Shown here piece after piece: positions 6-44,542 of a stretch of DNA of 64,000 bases. The stretch is from a virus. Lineage: Duplodnaviria; Caudoviricetes. Made by a program: the position numbers and the translations under genes. The notes beneath the pieces are model-generated. The model ran no database searches, was not told where the DNA came from, and saw nothing but the letters and a program-made list of their open reading frames with translations. The first letter of the stretch is position 1; each line of letters starts with the position of its first letter. Where the stretch lies: positions 12,424 to 76,423 of IMG/VR virus record IMGVR_UViG_3300026549_000069; one strand, written 5' to 3'.

Positions 6-3000
6 GTGCGGGAGGGGATGGTTAGTGACAATGGCGACTTGAAAGGAATGACAAAGTACTCGTTTGAGTTCTACCACCCGATGCACATGTTGTCTAATTT
101 CCCATTCACAGATGTCGCTGTAAGCAATGATGAATTGTTATATAAGTCACAGGACAAGGTATTTTCTTGGGTCGGATATTTACAAGACTATATAAACAAG
201 TTAAACAAGAACCTGCAAGAAACGCAATGGATTTGCGATTTAAGCCCTTTGACGCAAGAGAGCACGTTAAAGAAATTCAGCGATGTACTTACTTTCGACA
301 ACAACACGATTGCAGACGCATTAAAGACTGCATTTGATACTTGGGGAGTTCCCTTTGTCATTGATGTTATATCAGTCACAGATGAACGGTATGCGCAAGG
401 AAAACGATTCTTGATACATTTTGGAGAACCGTCAAATGAAATTTACGAAAGCGAAGATGCAAAAGAGGCTAGCACACCATTCGTGTTCAAGTTCGGGCAA
501 GGTGTAGGATTAAAGAACAATAGTGCAACACCGAAGAACAACAAAATCATCACACGAATTGCAGGCTATGGCAGCGAAAGAAATATACCTTTCGGCTATC
601 CGCAAATTGTTTGGGATGAAAATGGTGATGAAAGCGAATTGCAATATCCTTTGTATGATGGCATAGTTGGCGGTAGGTGGGTCAAGCTAATTAAGCATCC
701 ATTCACAAGAAACCACCTAATGCCAACAATCTATGCTGAAACTGTTGCAAGAAAGGTCAATCCAATGGATGCTCACTACGACCCGAATACAACCATTATT
801 GACTATCACGATGCACTAGACCAAAGCATTTATCAGCATACAATTAATCCAAATTCGCCGTCATACGAATCGCATGAATTTGAAGATATATTTCCCGAAC
901 TGGGCGTAAAGAACATAGTTGCAGTCCAGCCTATCAATGACGATATGACTGATGCACAAGATTGGGATGATTCTGTTGATGACCAAGGGAACTACAAGCA
1001 AGGGTATTTTAAGCTGACATTGCCTGTTCTTGATTTTGACTTGTATGCCTGTGCTGCAATCACAGAGGAAATGCAAATCAATATGCGCACTGGTGCTTGC
1101 ATTGGCTGTACGTTTACAATACAAGTGGATTGGGAAGATTATAAGAAGAATTTCTACGATGCAGACAATAACTTCAGTCCAGATGGTAGCCAACGTGATT
1201 TAACAAAATATCCGAAAAGCCAAAACGGTCAGATAATTGTTATCTGCCAAAAGGACACAAACACATTTGGCACGCTGATGCCAAACATATTCCAAAAGCC
1301 AAAAGGCACTATCGCAGGAGAATATGAAGGTGACGAGTTTGTTGTTCTTGGCATTTCTTTGCCCGAAAGTCACATTATAAATGCGCAATATAGGCTTGAT
1401 GCAGCAATGGATGAGTATATGTTGGAAAACAACGTGTACTACTTTGACTACCCGTTGAAATTTGACGAACATTTCCTTGCGACACACACCTATGTACTCA
1501 ATCAAATAAAGAACAACACTATTGTCAGATTTGAGTTTAAGGGGGAAATTATACCGTTGTATGTAAAGCAAATCACAATTAAATATGGTGAATCACCGCT
1601 ACCGCAATACACAATCACCTTGACTGATGATGTTGATATTGTTCTGAATCAAATCGGTCAAGTAACAGATGATGTGAGCAAGATGCGTGTGCAAATATCA
1701 TCATTGCAATCATATTGGTATCGTAGTGGTGCTGGTGGCAGTGGAACAGATAATACAAAACTATCGAAAGTTGTAGATGATACAGCTAGCGGTGTAATAA
1801 CGTTCTTGCAAGGATTGCTGGCAGGTAATTGGGTTGAGGATTCTAGTGGTGCTGCCATTCATCAAAACAATGACGGAAACTGGGTGATTGAGGCTGATTA
1901 TTTCAATGTTCGTAAAAAGCTGCAAGCTAACGAGGTTGAAATAATGCACAGTTCACATATTGGCGGTCGCCTAATTGCCACCGCAGGTTCTATGGTTGTT
2001 ACGAAAGTGCAATACATAGACAATTATCAAACAATAGTGTATTCAAACATTTGGAATGGCTCTTGCTATAAATGCTGGTTCAACACAACAGATAGTGATG
2101 GGAATGTTATCTACAATACATTTAAGGTTGGCGACCTAGCATATTGCGAAACTTTTAATTTAACAACAAGTAGCGACGGATTGACAAACCACAGCACAGG
2201 CAATCACTTCTATTGGCGAAAGGTTGTAGAAACTGGCAGTGATTATATCATTCTGTCAAATGTATTTGGTGAATATGCGGCAGAAAGTGACTACCCTTAT
2301 GTTGGCGACCATATTACGTTGTTAGGCAGTCAAGCATACATAGGTTCAGCAGGAACGCAACCGATAGGTGAAGGCGAACAAGGTGTTCCAGCTGGTGTTG
2401 ATTCTTACGAAATTGACACAAGCAGACAGAATGCAATTATAATGGCTGGTGCTGGTGCTGGCAATCCATATATCCGTGTTTATAAAGGGATTGATACTTT
2501 TGTCTTACCAAATCCTGTTGTGCAAATATCACCAAGCGGTTCGTGGATTACTGTAACTGACAATAACGGAAATGATGTAAAAATAACAGACCTTATTGAT
2601 AGTCTGCAAGACCAAGTTGACCAAGTAAAAGAACAGGATGACAAGCAAATTGTTCTTTGGTTTGGGAACGAAACACCGACATTAAATAATGCCCCTGCTG
2701 TTAATTGGGAAACAGAGCAAATTCGGCACGAACACGCAAATGACATCTACTACAATCGTGATGCAGGATTGGCTTATTCGTTTATTGAAACAATAACAGA
2801 AAATATTGCAAGCTATTCTTGGGATTTACTCACAGACCAAGACGTGTTGCGCTCGCTTGAACTTGCAGCAAAAGCGCAAGATACCGCAGATGGGAAAAGG
2901 CGTGTATTTGTTGCACGACCCACACAAGCACAGGCATACGACATTGGCGATTTGTGGGTTAATGCAACTTTCCCGACCGAAATAAGCGATGGCGAAAGCA

Positions 3001-4019
3001 CATTTGGCGATTCGACTGGAACTATACACACAATCGAAAATCCGCTATACAACAACGACATCCTGCGTTGTGTTGTCGCTAAAAGCGAGGGGGATGCATT
3101 TAATATTTCCCATTGGCAACCAGTACAAGAATTCACTACAAGTCGGATAGTTCAAAACTCCAACCAAATCAAACTTGAAGTACAGCAAGGGATGGAAACT
3201 ACTGGTATTAACATCACAACAGGGAAGATTGAACTGAATGCAGCAAACACAGTCGTTTCAAATACATTGTCTGTAGCTAGATTGGAAACACACCCAGACA
3301 CAAGCGTTGATGCTACGAATAAAGCAAAAGTTCAAATCAGTGGCAGTACAATGAACGTGTTTGGCGCGACTGGAATCATGAACATACAATTTGGTGTTGA
3401 TGATGACGGATATGCTGTATTGAAATACTACGACAATGATGGATTCCTTTTGTATGACCTTGGGCCGCACGGGATTAGAACTTTAGATATTAGTTCTGAA
3501 GGCTTTGATTACGATGATTTGTATGTGGTGACACAAGAAGGGGCAAACGACACAAGTGACACATTGGCCACACTAGGCAGGTATCATCCTAAAAAGATAG
3601 CGACAGTTGTTTCGGCCGGCACGATTGCGGATAATAATGATGCAATTGCAGCAGAGGCTAGTGGCAAATGGTTTACGACAACAACGTATGGTGCTGAAAT
3701 TTCAACAATAGTCGCTAATGGTGCTCTTGATACATCAATATTAGCAAACGGAACATATAGGTGGACAAACGAAATATTTTCAATGTCAAACCTTGAATTA
3801 TATGGTAATAGTGTCAGCGATGCAAAAGCGGATTTAATTCTTCAAACAGGAATATCACAAGCACAAGCAGATGCTTTTGATTGGGAGCTTAATACTTCGC
3901 AGTCAAATTTTGTACTAAAACGTACTATATATTGGCGAGAATATACTAACTTTGTCGATGGTGTCGAACAACCACAACATATTACAGTATGGCAAACTGA
4001 AGAATATAATGAGAATTAA
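6..4019 (+). CDS. Phage tail-tip/baseplate hub-type structural protein (5' truncated)
   Basis: Frame open to window edge; KIITRIAGYGSERNIP and ADYFNVRKKLQANEVEI segments typical of Bacteroidales phage tail proteins; heads the tail-lysis operon. Confidence 0.75.
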   Translation: MREGMVSDNGDLKGMTKYSFEFYHPMHMLSNFPFTDVAVSNDELLYKSQDKVFSWVGYLQDYINKLNKNLQETQWICDLSPLTQESTLKKFSDVLTFDNNTIADALKTAFDTWGVPFVIDVISVTDERYAQGKRFLIHFGEPSNEIYESEDAKEASTPFVFKFGQGVGLKNNSATPKNNKIITRIAGYGSERNIPFGYPQIVWDENGDESELQYPLYDGIVGGRWVKLIKHPFTRNHLMPTIYAETVARKVNPMDAHYDPNTTIIDYHDALDQSIYQHTINPNSPSYESHEFEDIFPELGVKNIVAVQPINDDMTDAQDWDDSVDDQGNYKQGYFKLTLPVLDFDLYACAAITEEMQINMRTGACIGCTFTIQVDWEDYKKNFYDADNNFSPDGSQRDLTKYPKSQNGQIIVICQKDTNTFGTLMPNIFQKPKGTIAGEYEGDEFVVLGISLPESHIINAQYRLDAAMDEYMLENNVYYFDYPLKFDEHFLATHTYVLNQIKNNTIVRFEFKGEIIPLYVKQITIKYGESPLPQYTITLTDDVDIVLNQIGQVTDDVSKMRVQISSLQSYWYRSGAGGSGTDNTKLSKVVDDTASGVITFLQGLLAGNWVEDSSGAAIHQNNDGNWVIEADYFNVRKKLQANEVEIMHSSHIGGRLIATAGSMVVTKVQYIDNYQTIVYSNIWNGSCYKCWFNTTDSDGNVIYNTFKVGDLAYCETFNLTTSSDGLTNHSTGNHFYWRKVVETGSDYIILSNVFGEYAAESDYPYVGDHITLLGSQAYIGSAGTQPIGEGEQGVPAGVDSYEIDTSRQNAIIMAGAGAGNPYIRVYKGIDTFVLPNPVVQISPSGSWITVTDNNGNDVKITDLIDSLQDQVDQVKEQDDKQIVLWFGNETPTLNNAPAVNWETEQIRHEHANDIYYNRDAGLAYSFIETITENIASYSWDLLTDQDVLRSLELAAKAQDTADGKRRVFVARPTQAQAYDIGDLWVNATFPTEISDGESTFGDSTGTIHTIENPLYNNDILRCVVAKSEGDAFNISHWQPVQEFTTSRIVQNSNQIKLEVQQGMETTGINITTGKIELNAANTVVSNTLSVARLETHPDTSVDATNKAKVQISGSTMNVFGATGIMNIQFGVDDDGYAVLKYYDNDGFLLYDLGPHGIRTLDISSEGFDYDDLYVVTQEGANDTSDTLATLGRYHPKKIATVVSAGTIADNNDAIAAEASGKWFTTTTYGAEISTIVANGALDTSILANGTYRWTNEIFSMSNLELYGNSVSDAKADLILQTGISQAQADAFDWELNTSQSNFVLKRTIYWREYTNFVDGVEQPQHITVWQTEEYNEN

Positions 4020-29119: not shown

Positions 29120-30097
29120 TCATTTCTTCTCCCATTTTTGACGTTCTTTCGACCAGACAACAGTACCACGGCCATTGTTCATCTTGATTTCAGCCCCGTC
29201 AGGACGATTGTTGTTGTCATAGCCATCGAAGATATAATTCTCGTCAACACCAGTAAAAATATAGCACCCGTAATGCTCATTCCAATGAATGTTGCCAGTG
29301 GTGTCAGGACGATATTGCGTTTCACCAAACAAGCAGCCATAAACCTTGGACGGGTCATAGACAATCTTGCCACCGTCAAATATCACGTCATCGAAAAGGC
29401 GGTCACGAAGATAACGCTCAAAATCCCGCTGGTAGCACAATTCCCGTGTCGAAACATAAGCATGAATATGGCCTAGCACCCGAGAACGGTCATCAACAGA
29501 CAGACGTTCCCACTGCTCACGCGACTTTTTCTTGCTGCCCTTGCGATTGTAGGCAACCCAGCATTTTTCAAACATTTCGTCTTTTTCTTTTTTTTCTTTT
29601 TTGGATAGTTTTTTTCTTTTATTTTCTTTTTCTACAACATCATCTTGTTGTTGTATACTATCAGCATCTATGTGTAGTATACTAGTATCAGTATCTAGTA
29701 TTGTAATATTATTATAGTATTGCCGATTTTCAACCCGTGTAGGAGTTTTTCCGATTCGGGTTTTTTCCGAGTCAGGTTTTTCCCCACACGGCTCAGATTC
29801 ACAACAACGAAAAGCCTTGAGCACATATTTCACATTGCCAAAACAACCCTTGCCATCCTTGGACTGACCAACACGAACCAACCAACCAGATGACATCAAC
29901 TCTCCTACATACTTGCGAAAGGTGTCCGCACTGTAACCCAATTCAGAACACATCGTTTTCTGGTCGAAATTCCAGCCCGGTTCCTTGCAAGCCATGTAAA
30001 CATACATGAACCTAGCACGGTCACTCAACGCAACATCAAATACCAAATCTTTCGGTATCGACTGCAAACCACATAATTCACTTGAAAAATTACCCAT
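29120..30097 (-). CDS. Replication initiator / replisome organiser (wHTH)
   Basis: LSDRARFMYVY...ELMSSGWL wHTH; FEKCWVAYNRKGSK C-terminal domain; likely start ATG 30097. Confidence 0.7.
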   Translation of the reverse strand: MGNFSSELCGLQSIPKDLVFDVALSDRARFMYVYMACKEPGWNFDQKTMCSELGYSADTFRKYVGELMSSGWLVRVGQSKDGKGCFGNVKYVLKAFRCCESEPCGEKPDSEKTRIGKTPTRVENRQYYNNITILDTDTSILHIDADSIQQQDDVVEKENKRKKLSKKEKKEKDEMFEKCWVAYNRKGSKKKSREQWERLSVDDRSRVLGHIHAYVSTRELCYQRDFERYLRDRLFDDVIFDGGKIVYDPSKVYGCLFGETQYRPDTTGNIHWNEHYGCYIFTGVDENYIFDGYDNNNRPDGAEIKMNNGRGTVVWSKERQKWEKK

Positions 30098-30310
30098 AAT
30101 ACAAACTTTTTTATCATACCCACAACCAAACATACATACAAAAAACAACCACTGGCAATCAAACAATATTGTCTTCCACTACAATCCGTCTAATCACCAG
30201 CGGCCGAAAAAAGTTTGTATATATGCTGAGGAGCGAAGTAATCCGAGATTTATTATACAAAATTGCCAATTGAATGTGGAAGATTTAGCAACATTTCAAA
30301 AATCACAGTG

Positions 30311-30342: not shown

Positions 30343-30377
30343 TTTTTTCCCAAAAAAATGACAAAATTGATTTTAAA

Positions 30378-30455
30378 GCGCATTTAAGCACGTCAAACAA
30401 GCAAAATGAACAACTATACTACACAACACACAAAAACGTAACACAGGGCAATTGT
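30378..30455. repeat. Dispersed element, copy C
   Basis: gcatttaagcac...gaacaacta...acacagggcaatt with 55-nt spacing. Confidence 0.5.
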
Positions 30456-30594
30456 GGACGTTTTAGGGGCATTATAGAATTATAAGTACAATATAACTTG
30501 ATTTTTTCAAAAATTTTTTTCGTTTTTTCGAAAAAAGGGTTTGCACCACACGAAATCCACGTCCCTATCTCCCCCTCCCCCTCGGCCTAAAAGC

Positions 30595-30712
30595 TAGCTG
30601 AAACGCCCCTAAACACGCAAAACGCAAATATATTTGTATCAAACGAACAATTAACTTGAATATCAAACAATTGCACACAAAATCACCTTAAACGCTAGCT
30701 TTTTGGGCGAAA
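30595..30712. repeat. Dyad element, possible inverted member of the same family
   Basis: aaaagctagc/gctagctttt 10-bp inverted repeat; reverse strand reads gcgtttaaggtgatttt. Confidence 0.4.
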
Positions 30713-30719
30713 ATACATA

Positions 30720-31060
30720 CAATCTAATTTAATATACAATAATTTCATTTTTCTGCAAATATATCTACTTTTCATAAATTTTTGCTATTTTGCCCTAATA
30801 TTAATATAATTATTACATAACTTTAATAACTTTACAGTATAAACTGTATAATACTACACTAACAGATAATACTAGCTAATAAACAGTAGTATACTAACAG
30901 TTTATATATCAACTAAATAACAGTTAATTAGTTAATTATTATAGATATGCTTAAATAGTATGATTATAATATTACTATTAATAAATATCCATTTGGCTAG
31001 TATTTCCTTTTGGACTAGTCTAATTTGCTTTAATAATGTACCCACACGAAAGGGCTGGAT
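30720..31060. other. Very AT-rich non-coding tract (origin or terminus candidate)
   Basis: Visibly AT-dominated, no ORF, between divergent promoters. Confidence 0.45.
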
Positions 31061-31168
31061 TTAGTTAACAAACCTTTAAAAATAGGCTTATTTGTGAAAA
31101 TATCTTTCGCCTATATATATGTACACACGAAATAATGCAGTTAACAGGCGTTAAAAAAATAGGAAAAA

Positions 31169-31200
31169 TTTGGTCAATCCAGAAGGTGGGTGTACTTTTG
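31169..31200 (+). promoter_or_regulatory. Bacteroidota promoter (rightward, early)
   Basis: TTTG-N20-TACTTTTG. Confidence 0.8.
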
Positions 31201-31926
31201 CAGTGTCGAAAGGGACAAAGGAACAACCCGCCACCGTAACGCGGCGCCCCACGTCCGAACAACCAAACAAGTTAGACTAACGTTGTATGTTAGTTGAAGA
31301 GCACCTTGAAATGATGACAAACGGCATTGTACCGGATAGGTCGGAGCCAACCGTGAAAAGCTATTTAGCTCGTTGGTCCAGGAATTGACAATTCCCCACC
31401 TTCGTTAACACTTCTGGCAAAGGTGTAAGCGGTTGAGTTTTTAGACTAAAAGCGGTAACAAAGAGCCGAAGCGGGAAGGTATGCACAATGTACCGAGCTT
31501 AAAAACGTGTGAATGAATTGAATTAGCTAGTAAATTGTTCCACGTAAAACAATTGCGACGCAAAAAGCAAAATAAATGATTTTTGAGCAAATTTGCAAAG
31601 CTATCTTTATAGCATTTAATTGCAGTGAGTCAATTGCAAGTGCAGCACACAATTAGCTATCATTATAGCACTTTTGATTGTGTGCAGCGCTAAAGCAAAA
31701 ATCATTGACTTTTGCCGGTTGCGGCAGCCTGAAAAAATAAGGGCTGCAGCGCCGCAATTGTTATTAGCCAGATTAAGCAACAAAAAACACTGGCGGACGA
31801 CAGATGAGGAGAATAACAGAGTCGTTTTTTAGGAGCCTTCTCGGGCTCCCCGCCAACAAATTTAATTCACTAACCTACTTAAAGCGCTTTTCGGTTGCAG
31901 GCCTCGGCCGTGGAACCGTGTATATT
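31201..31926 (+). ncRNA. Candidate large structured RNA / leader
   Basis: No credible ORF; nested helices, e.g. 31367-72/31494-99, 31398-403/31475-80, 31575-85/31696-706, 31645-53/31677-85, three-way junction 31791-31855. Confidence 0.55.
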
Positions 31927-32487
31927 ATGGCTACAACAAACAATGCTACCGCAATCCGCATCGACAACATGAGTCTGTTTCTCCTCGGCGAGAAAAAGGT
32001 CAACTTTAAGAACGTCCTTAAAGCAACGAAGGACGGCATGACTCTTAACCGTGTTATTAGAATGATGGCGAGCAAGGATTGTTATCCCACACTCGCCGAG
32101 GACTTGAAGCTGTGTGGCATCAACTCTGCCGCCGAGCTCACGCTAAAAAATGTTAAGTCGTTGGTTGCGCCCGAGCTAAAGAAGGTGGAGACGGTAAAGA
32201 ACGAGAACGGCACCGAGCGTGAGGTGGAAGTGCTTTGCACCGTCCGTCGCGTTTTTGAAACAGAGGAGGTACAATTGTACCGTGACGGCATGCCCTTGTG
32301 CAAAGCTGGCAAACCACTCACGCAAAAGCGTGCAAAGGAGGACGAGGACGGCGAGAAGGTTGTCAAGGAGTACAAGCTGTGCAAGGTGTCTGCATGGAGC
32401 ATCGGCCTCCTCATGAACTTGCTTGCACAGTCGAAGGCTGCAAACGAGGAGCGTGCTCGCATTGCAGCTATGCAGGCTGCAAAGTAA
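31927..32487 (+). CDS. First early gene, 186 aa, unknown function
   Basis: ATG 31927 after tatatt; strongly C/G-ending codons; K/E-rich. Confidence 0.8.
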   Translation: MATTNNATAIRIDNMSLFLLGEKKVNFKNVLKATKDGMTLNRVIRMMASKDCYPTLAEDLKLCGINSAAELTLKNVKSLVAPELKKVETVKNENGTEREVEVLCTVRRVFETEEVQLYRDGMPLCKAGKPLTQKRAKEDEDGEKVVKEYKLCKVSAWSIGLLMNLLAQSKAANEERARIAAMQAAK

Positions 32488-32502: not shown

Positions 32503-32600
32503 AACCCGTCCGAGCGGGGCCGTTGGGTAGGGAGCGGCAAAGGTAGTTAGGCTCGGAGCGTTTGCCCGTCACAGTGGGGAGGTGGCGGGCGAGGTCTACA
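32503..32600 (+). ncRNA. Pistol-class self-cleaving ribozyme with an inserted hairpin
   Basis: P1 cccg/cggg; loop tccgag pairs with ctcgga; AAA linker; P2 gtag/ctac; ttagg loop; GCG; 12-bp P3; G|U site 32594/32595. Confidence 0.85.
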
Positions 32601-44227: not shown

Positions 44228-44258
44228 TTTGCAATATCAAAAATAACTTGTATCTTTG
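44228..44258 (+). promoter_or_regulatory. Bacteroidota promoter upstream of tRNA
   Basis: TTTG-N19-TATCTTTG. Confidence 0.8.
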
Positions 44259-44352
44259 CATTGTAAAACAACCAAGGTTGGCGTTTAACTTAATTATTAA
44301 CAATATGGGGTGGTTTTACACTAAATTTGCGTAACTTGGTTGTTTTACATTT

Positions 44353-44424
44353 TGGCGATTGGTGTAATGGTTTGCACGTCAGTTTTTGGCACTGAAAGGG
44401 CAAGTTCAATTCTTGCATCGCCAA
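44353..44424 (+). tRNA. tRNA-Gln (UUG)
   Basis: Acceptor tggcgat/atcgcca, D arm gtg/cac, anticodon stem tcagt/actga with loop ttTTGgc, T arm gcaag-ttcaatt-cttgc; no encoded CCA. Confidence 0.9.
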
Positions 44425-44542
44425 CAAGTTGAAAGGTTTTCGTTAATGGTGAATGATTGCCGGGCGTGCAGTGTAACAATTACAAACCATTAAAAATACA
44501 TTGCAGCCCGACTTTTTACTAACATTTAAAAGAATTGTATAT

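Follow-up and report, generated by a model that had tools for sequence, protein, structure and literature searches.

The early leader and its setting

Positions 31201-31926 (+ strand) of a 64,000-nucleotide (nt) window, the whole stretch of DNA analysed here, form the 726-nt gene-free leader of a predicted early rightward transcript. The window makes up most of a 76.4-kb IMG/VR virus record (IMGVR_UViG_3300026549_000069), with a completeness of 96% by CheckV. Judged from its sequence, the leader is a genuine, uncatalogued region of structured non-coding RNA. With moderate confidence, we read it as a modular, processed leader RNA that opens a punctuated early operon as a cassette without a gene and would act as a protein-binding platform, and neither as a giant fold nor as a gene.

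Genes run leftward as far as 30166 and rightward starting at 31927. On the leftward side, matches to replication-initiator PHROGs were obtained for the first gene (29120-30166); on the rightward side, a 186-aa gene of unassigned family (gene 1) is followed by a small open reading frame (ORF), then by an AAA_5/MoxR-type ATPase gene and a gene for a DUF7192 protein. A pattern match places the early rightward promoter at 31169-31200 (+ strand), with a -33 TTTG (31169-31172) and a -7 box TAnnTTTG (31193-31200), a form which we take to be the Bacteroidetes type. The consensus promoter that a sequence-only reading had placed ahead of the leader is confirmed in its form, and it is kept in every relative: architecture and spacing are conserved in L125, L180, L181, L119, L121, L122, L002, L123, L126 and the distant relatives, and the CA right behind the -7 box is also kept among relatives. 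Transcription probably starts a few bases past 31200, as predicted from the position of the -7 box. Promoter-like sites of the same type sit at several apparent operon starts within the window; at four of them with a gene close downstream the leader measures 27-140 nt, compared with 726 nt here, and the gene-free leaders of the relatives are all about 400-1070 nt long.

Related loci were found via the ATPase and gene-1 proteins, and comprise close loci (L002, L119-L126, L180-L182 and L186) and distant loci (L157-L174). L125, L180 and L181 align to the window across 31368-31926 at 77-88% identity, with 5' parts that are partly swapped, and L182 is identical to L181 except for one base. These three full-length homologues carry a block of ~175 nt (527-702 in L125; 1509-1683 in L181) that is absent from the window at 31365-31367, and since the window does without it, the block appears dispensable. 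L186 can be aligned to the window only from 31792 on and otherwise shares modules, and L002, L119, L121, L122, L123 and L126 have only short patches in common with it. The distant relatives, which come from a metagenome scan, have the same promoter and long leaders of non-homologous sequence. Further searches added no homologues of the leader: the annotated phage collection yielded no DNA match, its protein matches being distant AAA_5 ATPases of unrelated phages only; the gene-1 protein had no match in IMG/VR; DNA-pattern scans with the RNA 5' end, two invariant 19-mers and one of the hairpins described below (H2) returned chance matches only; and a broad ATPase alignment search gave distant loci only, because the patterns were too degenerate.

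The distant leaders are rich in CAACG(G), with 4-9 copies on the + strand and 0-1 on the - strand (L171 3867-4500, L160 3007-3417, L167 3487-4133, L157 141-967). This repeat is absent from the window leader, and it could represent candidate protein-binding sites of a different leader type.

Non-coding status and known RNA families

No ORF of note is present in 31201-31926 under code 11, code 4 (TGA=W) or a TAG=Q code, and the alignment of homologues contains indels of 1, 2, 4 and 5 nt scattered along the leader. Such non-triplet, frame-breaking indels rule out coding, and a protein-coding function, including a recoded gene, was rejected. The sequence-only reading, which had seen no credible ORF here and could name no known class, was right on both counts. 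Between 30600 and 32700, Rfam searches at E values up to 10 gave chance-level matches only and none to GOLLD or ROOL, and no covariance model of families including GOLLD, ROOL, OLE, HEARO, raiA, transfer-messenger RNA (tmRNA) and RNase P matched the leader. At Rfam gathering scores, the sole passing match in the whole window is the transfer RNA (tRNA) at 44353-44424. With lax filters and E up to 10, no twister, twister-sister, hatchet, hepatitis delta virus-like or hairpin ribozyme was found in 31770-31930, where any matches were likewise at chance level. Rfam searches of the relatives likewise gave no match to the leader RNA, and the leaders of the distant relatives lack Rfam ribozymes. A sub-threshold tmRNA call, made by ARAGORN at a 70% threshold, was dismissed.

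Folding stability and covariation

The minimum free energy (MFE) of the entire stretch, compared with 20 shuffles per strand, corresponds to a z score of -5.8 for the + strand and -3.2 for the - strand. When segments of 200 nt are compared with the genome background (mean -0.42, standard deviation 1.08, minimum -3.7), 31551-31800 is the sole outlier, with z scores of -5.8 and -4.4, and 31201-31550 remains near 0. Dense pairing beyond chance is therefore a property of the 3' half only: the description of the whole leader as densely paired in the sequence-only reading applies to that half, but not to the 5' half, which folds like shuffled sequence. Each close relative's leader has a 200-nt segment with a z score between -2.8 and -7.0, the non-homologous leaders included.

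RNAalifold, applied to four homologues, proposes 135 pairs, 20 of which have changed on both sides, compared with 9.3 ± 2.1 in column shuffles. This number was reached in 0 of 500 shuffles, and slid-partner controls gave 2-5, the count being inflated because the RNAalifold structure is itself chosen partly for covariation. Many invariant G-U pairs are compatible with the + strand only. Covariation had been put forward in the sequence-only reading as a check on the pairing, and double changes do exceed shuffles, both here and in the junction described below (6 versus 1.2 ± 1.0). Altogether, these comparisons support the conclusion that the leader carries RNA structure under selection. All helices listed in the earlier reading are also exact reverse complements at the coordinates it gave, among them 31367-72/31494-99, 31398-403/31475-80, the 11-bp helix 31575-85/31696-706, and the 7-mers at 31719 and 31751.

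Three small elements can be recognized in the 5' half, all on the + strand. First, a hairpin at 31229-31246, read by eye from the alignment, has a 4-bp stem and a conserved CCGUAAC in its loop; the loop stays the same while the stem reads CGCC/GGCG in the window but CCUC/GAGG in L180, these being the only two sequence types. Second, a hairpin at 31381-31395 has a covarying 5-bp stem in which three consecutive pairs are double-changed among four sequences, and a conserved loop, UGACA (UGACU in L125 and L180). Third, a stem surrounds a 6-bp hairpin at 31469-31500 (helices 6 and 7), with two double changes in helix 6, one in helix 7 and 100% of cells paired; this arrangement competes with the 31367-72/31494-99 pairing listed earlier.

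These data bear directly on whether the leader is a functionless spacer, that is, mosaic junk between promoter and gene 1 in which hairpins occur by chance. The leaders of the relatives are mostly non-homologous, the window has dispensed with 175 nt without obvious harm, and the stability of the 5' half is ordinary, all of which a spacer would explain. However, every relative keeps a long leader, compared with less than 150 nt for the four other measured leaders of the window; compensatory changes accompany invariant loops; and the z score of 31551-31800 falls outside the genome background. A mere spacer is thus highly improbable.

A domain with two copies of one hairpin

The most elaborate part of the leader is a domain at 31548-31762 (+ strand), recognized by an inverted-repeat search and in MFE folds, and closed by a 13-bp long-range helix (31548-61/31749-62). 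It contains the 11-bp helix, two sibling hairpins (H1 and H2), a CAAUUG-based hairpin and, right before the 3' closing strand, a hairpin with an A-rich loop (the A-loop hairpin). Folded by MFE, the leaders of L125, L180, L181 and the window share one architecture, with the closing helix in all four. In L186 this helix is ambiguous, because several CAAUUG copies are able to pair.

H1 (31600-31613, + strand) has a 5-bp stem and a CUUU loop, and its flanking extension helix has a different sequence in L186 with pairing preserved. H2 (31656-69, loop CAUU) stands on a 9-bp stem, 31645-53/31677-85, so that the whole element occupies 31645-31685 (+ strand); this stem (helix 15) shows two double changes and two changes to G-U, with 97% of cells paired. 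The 12-nt core of H1 and H2 is kept in both copies in all five window-type leaders, L186 included. The A-loop hairpin (31724-31747, + strand) combines a 7-bp stem with three double changes (helix 17) and an invariant 10-nt loop, GAAAAAAUAA; in L186 (545-568) the stem is wholly replaced by another complementary pair and the loop is kept. Both CUAU-N4-AUAG (two copies) and CAAUUG (three to seven copies) are found in each of the five leaders joined to a window-type gene 1, and neither occurs in twelve other leaders, except for one CAAUUG in L119. As the H1/H2 core and CAAUUG are conserved in sequence, they are suited to protein recognition, and H1, H2 and the invariant A-rich loop look like candidate protein-binding sites. 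A second, internal promoter at H1, where L125 and L181 but not the window or L180 have a -7-like box, was not adopted.

The same motifs could instead be read as DNA sites, either repressor operators or parts of an origin, with the RNA hairpins a by-product of DNA symmetry. A 14-bp palindrome occurs twice, 56 bp apart, CAATTG is itself palindromic, and both motifs are invariant in sequence rather than covarying. In addition, the adjacent leftward gene is a replication initiator, the cumulative GC skew turns near 31 kb, and the first palindrome overlaps the -7-like box of L125 and L181. Against this, the flanking helices (the H2 stem, the H1 extension, the A-loop stem and the junction) change sequence and stay paired, which DNA sites would not need; G-U pairs of the + strand are retained; and the central CUUU points the same way in 9 of 10 copies. 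No other promoter has the palindromes, which occur nowhere else in the 64 kb, the internal -7-like box is missing from the window and L180, and the AT-rich stretch at 30343-31168 is a more obvious origin. No iterons were found in the leader apart from the two sibling hairpins. We consider a role as DNA sites distinctly unlikely.

Another explanation is antitermination of the put or nut kind, acting in cis: the nascent hairpins, alone or with a factor, would make the polymerase read through the rightward operon. The leader directly follows the early promoter that serves a long block of same-strand genes and has no terminator-like site on its + strand, and its two identical hairpins and A-rich-loop hairpin, with conserved loops on covarying stems, are what recognition elements would look like. 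The put element consists of two stem-loops and spans about 70 nt, and the leader resembles it neither in sequence nor in size. Moreover, no downstream terminators in need of suppression were identified, relatives with the same operon have unrelated leaders devoid of these motifs, and a leader cut at the junction would need to remain bound to the polymerase. Antitermination thus appears improbable.

Finally, the leader could be one large trans-acting non-coding RNA that, like ROOL and GOLLD, adopts a global tertiary fold; released from the early transcript as the earliest product of the infection, it would act on a target in the host or the phage, for instance as a decoy or scaffold. It is borne by a phage, measures ~720 nt, heads the early transcript and has a tRNA-like 3' end (see below), and GOLLD and ROOL sit beside tRNAs. 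The conserved loops of the covarying hairpins could form tertiary contacts, the self-complementary CAAUUG could mediate RNA-RNA pairing, and the stability of 31551-31800 is a genome outlier. Yet no match to GOLLD, ROOL or another large RNA of Rfam appears even at E up to 10, and the leader is a patchwork, with a 175-nt block present or absent, swapped 5' parts, and modules only in L186. The z score of the 5' half is near 0 and, beyond the closing helix of the domain, no covarying long-range pairs tying the modules together were found. The single ornate fold of ~720 nt proposed in the sequence-only reading does not survive these observations, and the non-homologous leaders of more distant relatives also speak against it. 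A large RNA of this sort is accordingly unlikely, and a set of modules remains the preferred description.

A pseudoknotted junction in a variable slot

Between the domain and gene 1 lies a pseudoknotted three-way junction at 31792-31854 (+ strand), which was drawn by hand from the window alone and tested on five sequences. It is composed of an outer stem (31792-96/31850-54), arm A (31797-801/31821-25), arm B (31832-37/31844-49) and a 5-bp loop-loop pairing of 31809-13 with 31838-42 that shows one compensatory change. The outer stem (5 bp, or 6 bp with U31791-A31855) and the 6-bp arm B adjoin directly and give a stack of 11-12 bp. This stack and the loop-loop contact resemble the acceptor/T half and the elbow of a tRNA, the part that RNase P and RNase Z recognize, in a geometry predicted from the pairing. 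Across the five sequences, 99% of cells are paired, and six pairs distributed over the three stems and the pseudoknot are double-changed, compared with 1.2 ± 1.0 in shuffles and 0 with slid partners. A covariance model of the junction finds exactly one copy per window-type leader and no further copy in the window or the 29 loci. The three-way junction that the sequence-only reading had drawn at 31791-31855 is therefore borne out by covariation, with a pseudoknot added to it.

The junction occupies a slot ~45-75 nt ahead of the gene-1 AUG that holds different elements in different relatives. In L123 (2717-2818, ~40 nt before the AUG) it is a hammerhead with a complete catalytic core, which scores 32.9 bits with the RAGATH-1 hammerhead model, below the gathering score of 56.3. 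In L002, L121, L122, L126 and the second tandem cassette of L181, it is a cloverleaf-like junction with a T-loop hairpin abutting the closing stem, and in L119 it is a four-way junction without a T-loop. The T-loop elements are tRNA mimics with a canonical T-loop hairpin and no usable anticodon arm (L002 ~3783-3836; L121 ~2740-2777; L122 ~1754-1857; L126 ~2965-3049; L181 ~2210-2345), and that of L181 stands in tandem behind a window-type junction. ARAGORN calls a tRNA in three of the mimics (L002, L121 and L126) at the 80% threshold and in none at default.

Behind each slot element stand a linker rich in A and U and then a hairpin, which stops about 8 nt short of the AUG. In the window, alignment identifies this 5' untranslated region (5'UTR) module at 31855-31926 (+ strand): UUCACUAAC (31866-74) lies in the linker, and the hairpin, at 31892-31918, stops 8 nt short of the AUG and has one compensatory change in its stem. 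Besides the promoter, this linker-hairpin block is the only part of the leader that can be aligned with L002. The pre-AUG hairpin is repeated before gene 2, after the pistol element, in L180 (~3690-3735) and L181 (~3125-3170), and the window has no second copy. The last ~135 nt of the leader, which had earlier been counted as part of the ornate core, are consequently better read as a processing-plus-5'UTR cassette.

It is also conceivable that the junction, with its invariant loop, belongs to a new self-cleaving or self-processing RNA class that releases, as the earliest product of the infection, an RNA-only agent of ~600 nt for host takeover or counter-defence, acting via the repeated hairpins. 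The core of a hammerhead (CUGAUGA, GAAA and a cleavage triplet) is absent from 31792-31854 by direct reading, and no Rfam model matches this segment. We regard this bolder interpretation as improbable.

Gene 1 and a probable pistol ribozyme variant

Gene 1 (31927-32487, + strand) is present in all relatives according to protein alignment. It has no Pfam or PHROG match, and its family is marked by an invariant Trp and by an 'LAQ' motif, usually LAQS, near the C-terminus. Foldseek searches of the gene-1 model against the PDB returned nothing at E below 0.001, and insignificant rows for single-stranded DNA-binding protein (SSB) and oligonucleotide/oligosaccharide-binding (OB) folds were not used.

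Directly 3' of the gene-1 stop lies a probable pistol ribozyme variant (32505-32600, + strand), whose elements were placed by hand. The hallmarks of pistol ribozymes are a P1 hairpin loop pseudoknotted with the P2-P3 junction, the P2 and P3 helices and a G-U cleavage site (Harris et al. 2015, PMC4604425). In the variant, P1 and P2 are separated by an additional hairpin, and the P3 loop is long. Because of these two features, the Rfam pistol model aligns to 32505-32600 only over model positions 28-64 and scores 11.1 bits, the gathering score being 34.5. L125 shows compensation in P1 and L180 covariation of the pseudoknot, and pistols above the Rfam gathering score are found right 3' of gene 1 in L119 (3408-3490), L123 (3313-3386) and L002 (4404-4488).

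Neighbouring features of the window

The early promoter is one of a divergent pair (30342-30311 on the - strand and 31169-31200 on the + strand), and the stretch between its members, 30343-31168, is AT-rich (31% GC), repeat-rich and adjoins the replication-initiator gene (29120-30166). The cumulative GC skew has its minimum and turn at this stretch, near 31 kb. Because of the adjacent initiator gene, the skew turn, the divergent promoters and the AT-richness, 30343-31168 is the likely replication origin, and a more plausible one than the leader.

Elsewhere in the window, at 44228-44425, a promoter of the same type precedes by ~95 nt the single tRNA gene, that for tRNA-Gln(UUG), and the next ORF starts at 44501. 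This tRNA may be a processing signal of its own transcript.

A modular, processed leader

Bringing these elements together, we infer that the leader is transcribed, cleaved at the junction and bound by protein. Host RNA polymerase would start at the promoter at 31169-31200 and transcribe the small hairpins with conserved loops, after which the ~215-nt domain (31548-31762) would display two copies of one hairpin together with an invariant A-rich loop. The junction at 31792-31854 is the putative RNA-processing signal, where host enzymes that process tRNAs, of the RNase P or RNase Z type, would cut. It is assigned this role because the equivalent slot in relatives, equivalent by position, holds a hammerhead or T-loop mimics. 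Cleavage at the junction would part the leader from the gene-1 mRNA, and the pistol variant at 32505-32600 would cut, or set, the 3' end of that mRNA. Whether released, with a length of about 600-650 nt, or still attached, the leader would most likely be a platform for a protein recognizing the repeated hairpins, and the bound protein would set the stability, read-through or timing of the early operon.

A number of observations weigh against this model. Metagenomes supplied five homologous leaders in all, of which two are almost the same in parts, and RNAalifold tends to favour covarying pairs in the structure it chooses. The stability of the 5' half does not exceed that of shuffled sequence, and the core of the domain is almost invariant, so that most of its pairs are uninformative on pairing. 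The 11-bp helix, on which the sequence-only reading laid stress, is present in the window at its coordinates, but it gains a mismatch in L125 and erodes in L181 by loss of outer pairs, in both cases without compensation. The conserved palindromic motifs could be DNA sites. The window junction lacks a T-loop: it has three helices, and its 6-nt loop departs from the T-arm consensus (5 bp with a 7-nt loop of the UUCRANY type). ARAGORN makes no call there even at thresholds of 60-80%. Finally, the AlphaFold2 (AF2) model of gene 1 is weak (predicted local distance difference test, pLDDT, 61.5) and gave no hint of an RNA-binding role.

Several implications can be drawn. Across this small group of uncultured phages with Bacteroidetes-type promoters, the slot ahead of gene 1 is filled interchangeably by a hammerhead, a T-loop tRNA mimic or a class-less pseudoknotted junction, which argues that its job is RNA cleavage by any means, and its variants among relatives constitute a natural swap set. 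The first early cassette is a structured RNA instead of a gene, and its sequence-conserved hairpins on covarying stems make it a candidate protein-binding early RNA. Should RNase P or RNase Z prove to cut the junction, bacterial viruses would have a counterpart of tRNA-like 3' end formation; a junction that cuts itself would define a new ribozyme class.

Comparison with known systems

That phage operons are cut into single-gene messages by ribozymes is already known. Hammerheads flank single genes in prophage transcripts, where their presumed role is to divide long RNAs into messages of one gene each (Perreault et al. 2011, PMC3088659). As in such ribozyme-flanked phage genes (PMC3088659, PMC4604425), gene 1 is bracketed by RNA elements, with a pistol after it in relatives (the probable variant in the window) and, in L123, a hammerhead before it, and a common short 5'UTR stands behind each element. 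By contrast, the window slot holds a pseudoknotted junction without a known ribozyme core, and the first cassette consists of ~600 nt of structured RNA in place of an ORF.

The size class of GOLLD and ROOL (600-800 nt), their phage location and their tRNA-like neighbour are all shared by the leader. It differs from them in having no Rfam match, in being a modular mosaic with five homologues, and in giving no sign of one global fold.

Processing signals related to tRNAs include those of the mitochondrial tRNA punctuation model, of MALAT1-mascRNA 3' end formation and of the stable RNAs of the phage T4 tRNA cluster. Like these, the leader presents a predicted acceptor/T-like stack and a predicted loop-loop 'elbow' at the point of parting between a long RNA and the next unit, and relatives carry T-loop mimics in that place. 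Unlike them, the window element has three helices and neither a T-loop nor a D-arm consensus. The literature searched contained no tRNA-like signal placed before the opening gene of an early operon in a Bacteroidetes-type phage.

Leader elements of coliphage early transcripts, finally, include the lambda nut site with its boxB hairpin, the HK022 put site and the early RNase III sites of T7. With these, the window leader has in common its place at the start of the early transcript, conserved loops of the recognition type (the A-rich loop on a covarying stem) and, as predicted here, the cutting of a polycistronic early RNA into units. However, it is ten times larger than put or nut, and the cutting would make use of a ribozyme and tRNA-type signals rather than RNase III hairpins.

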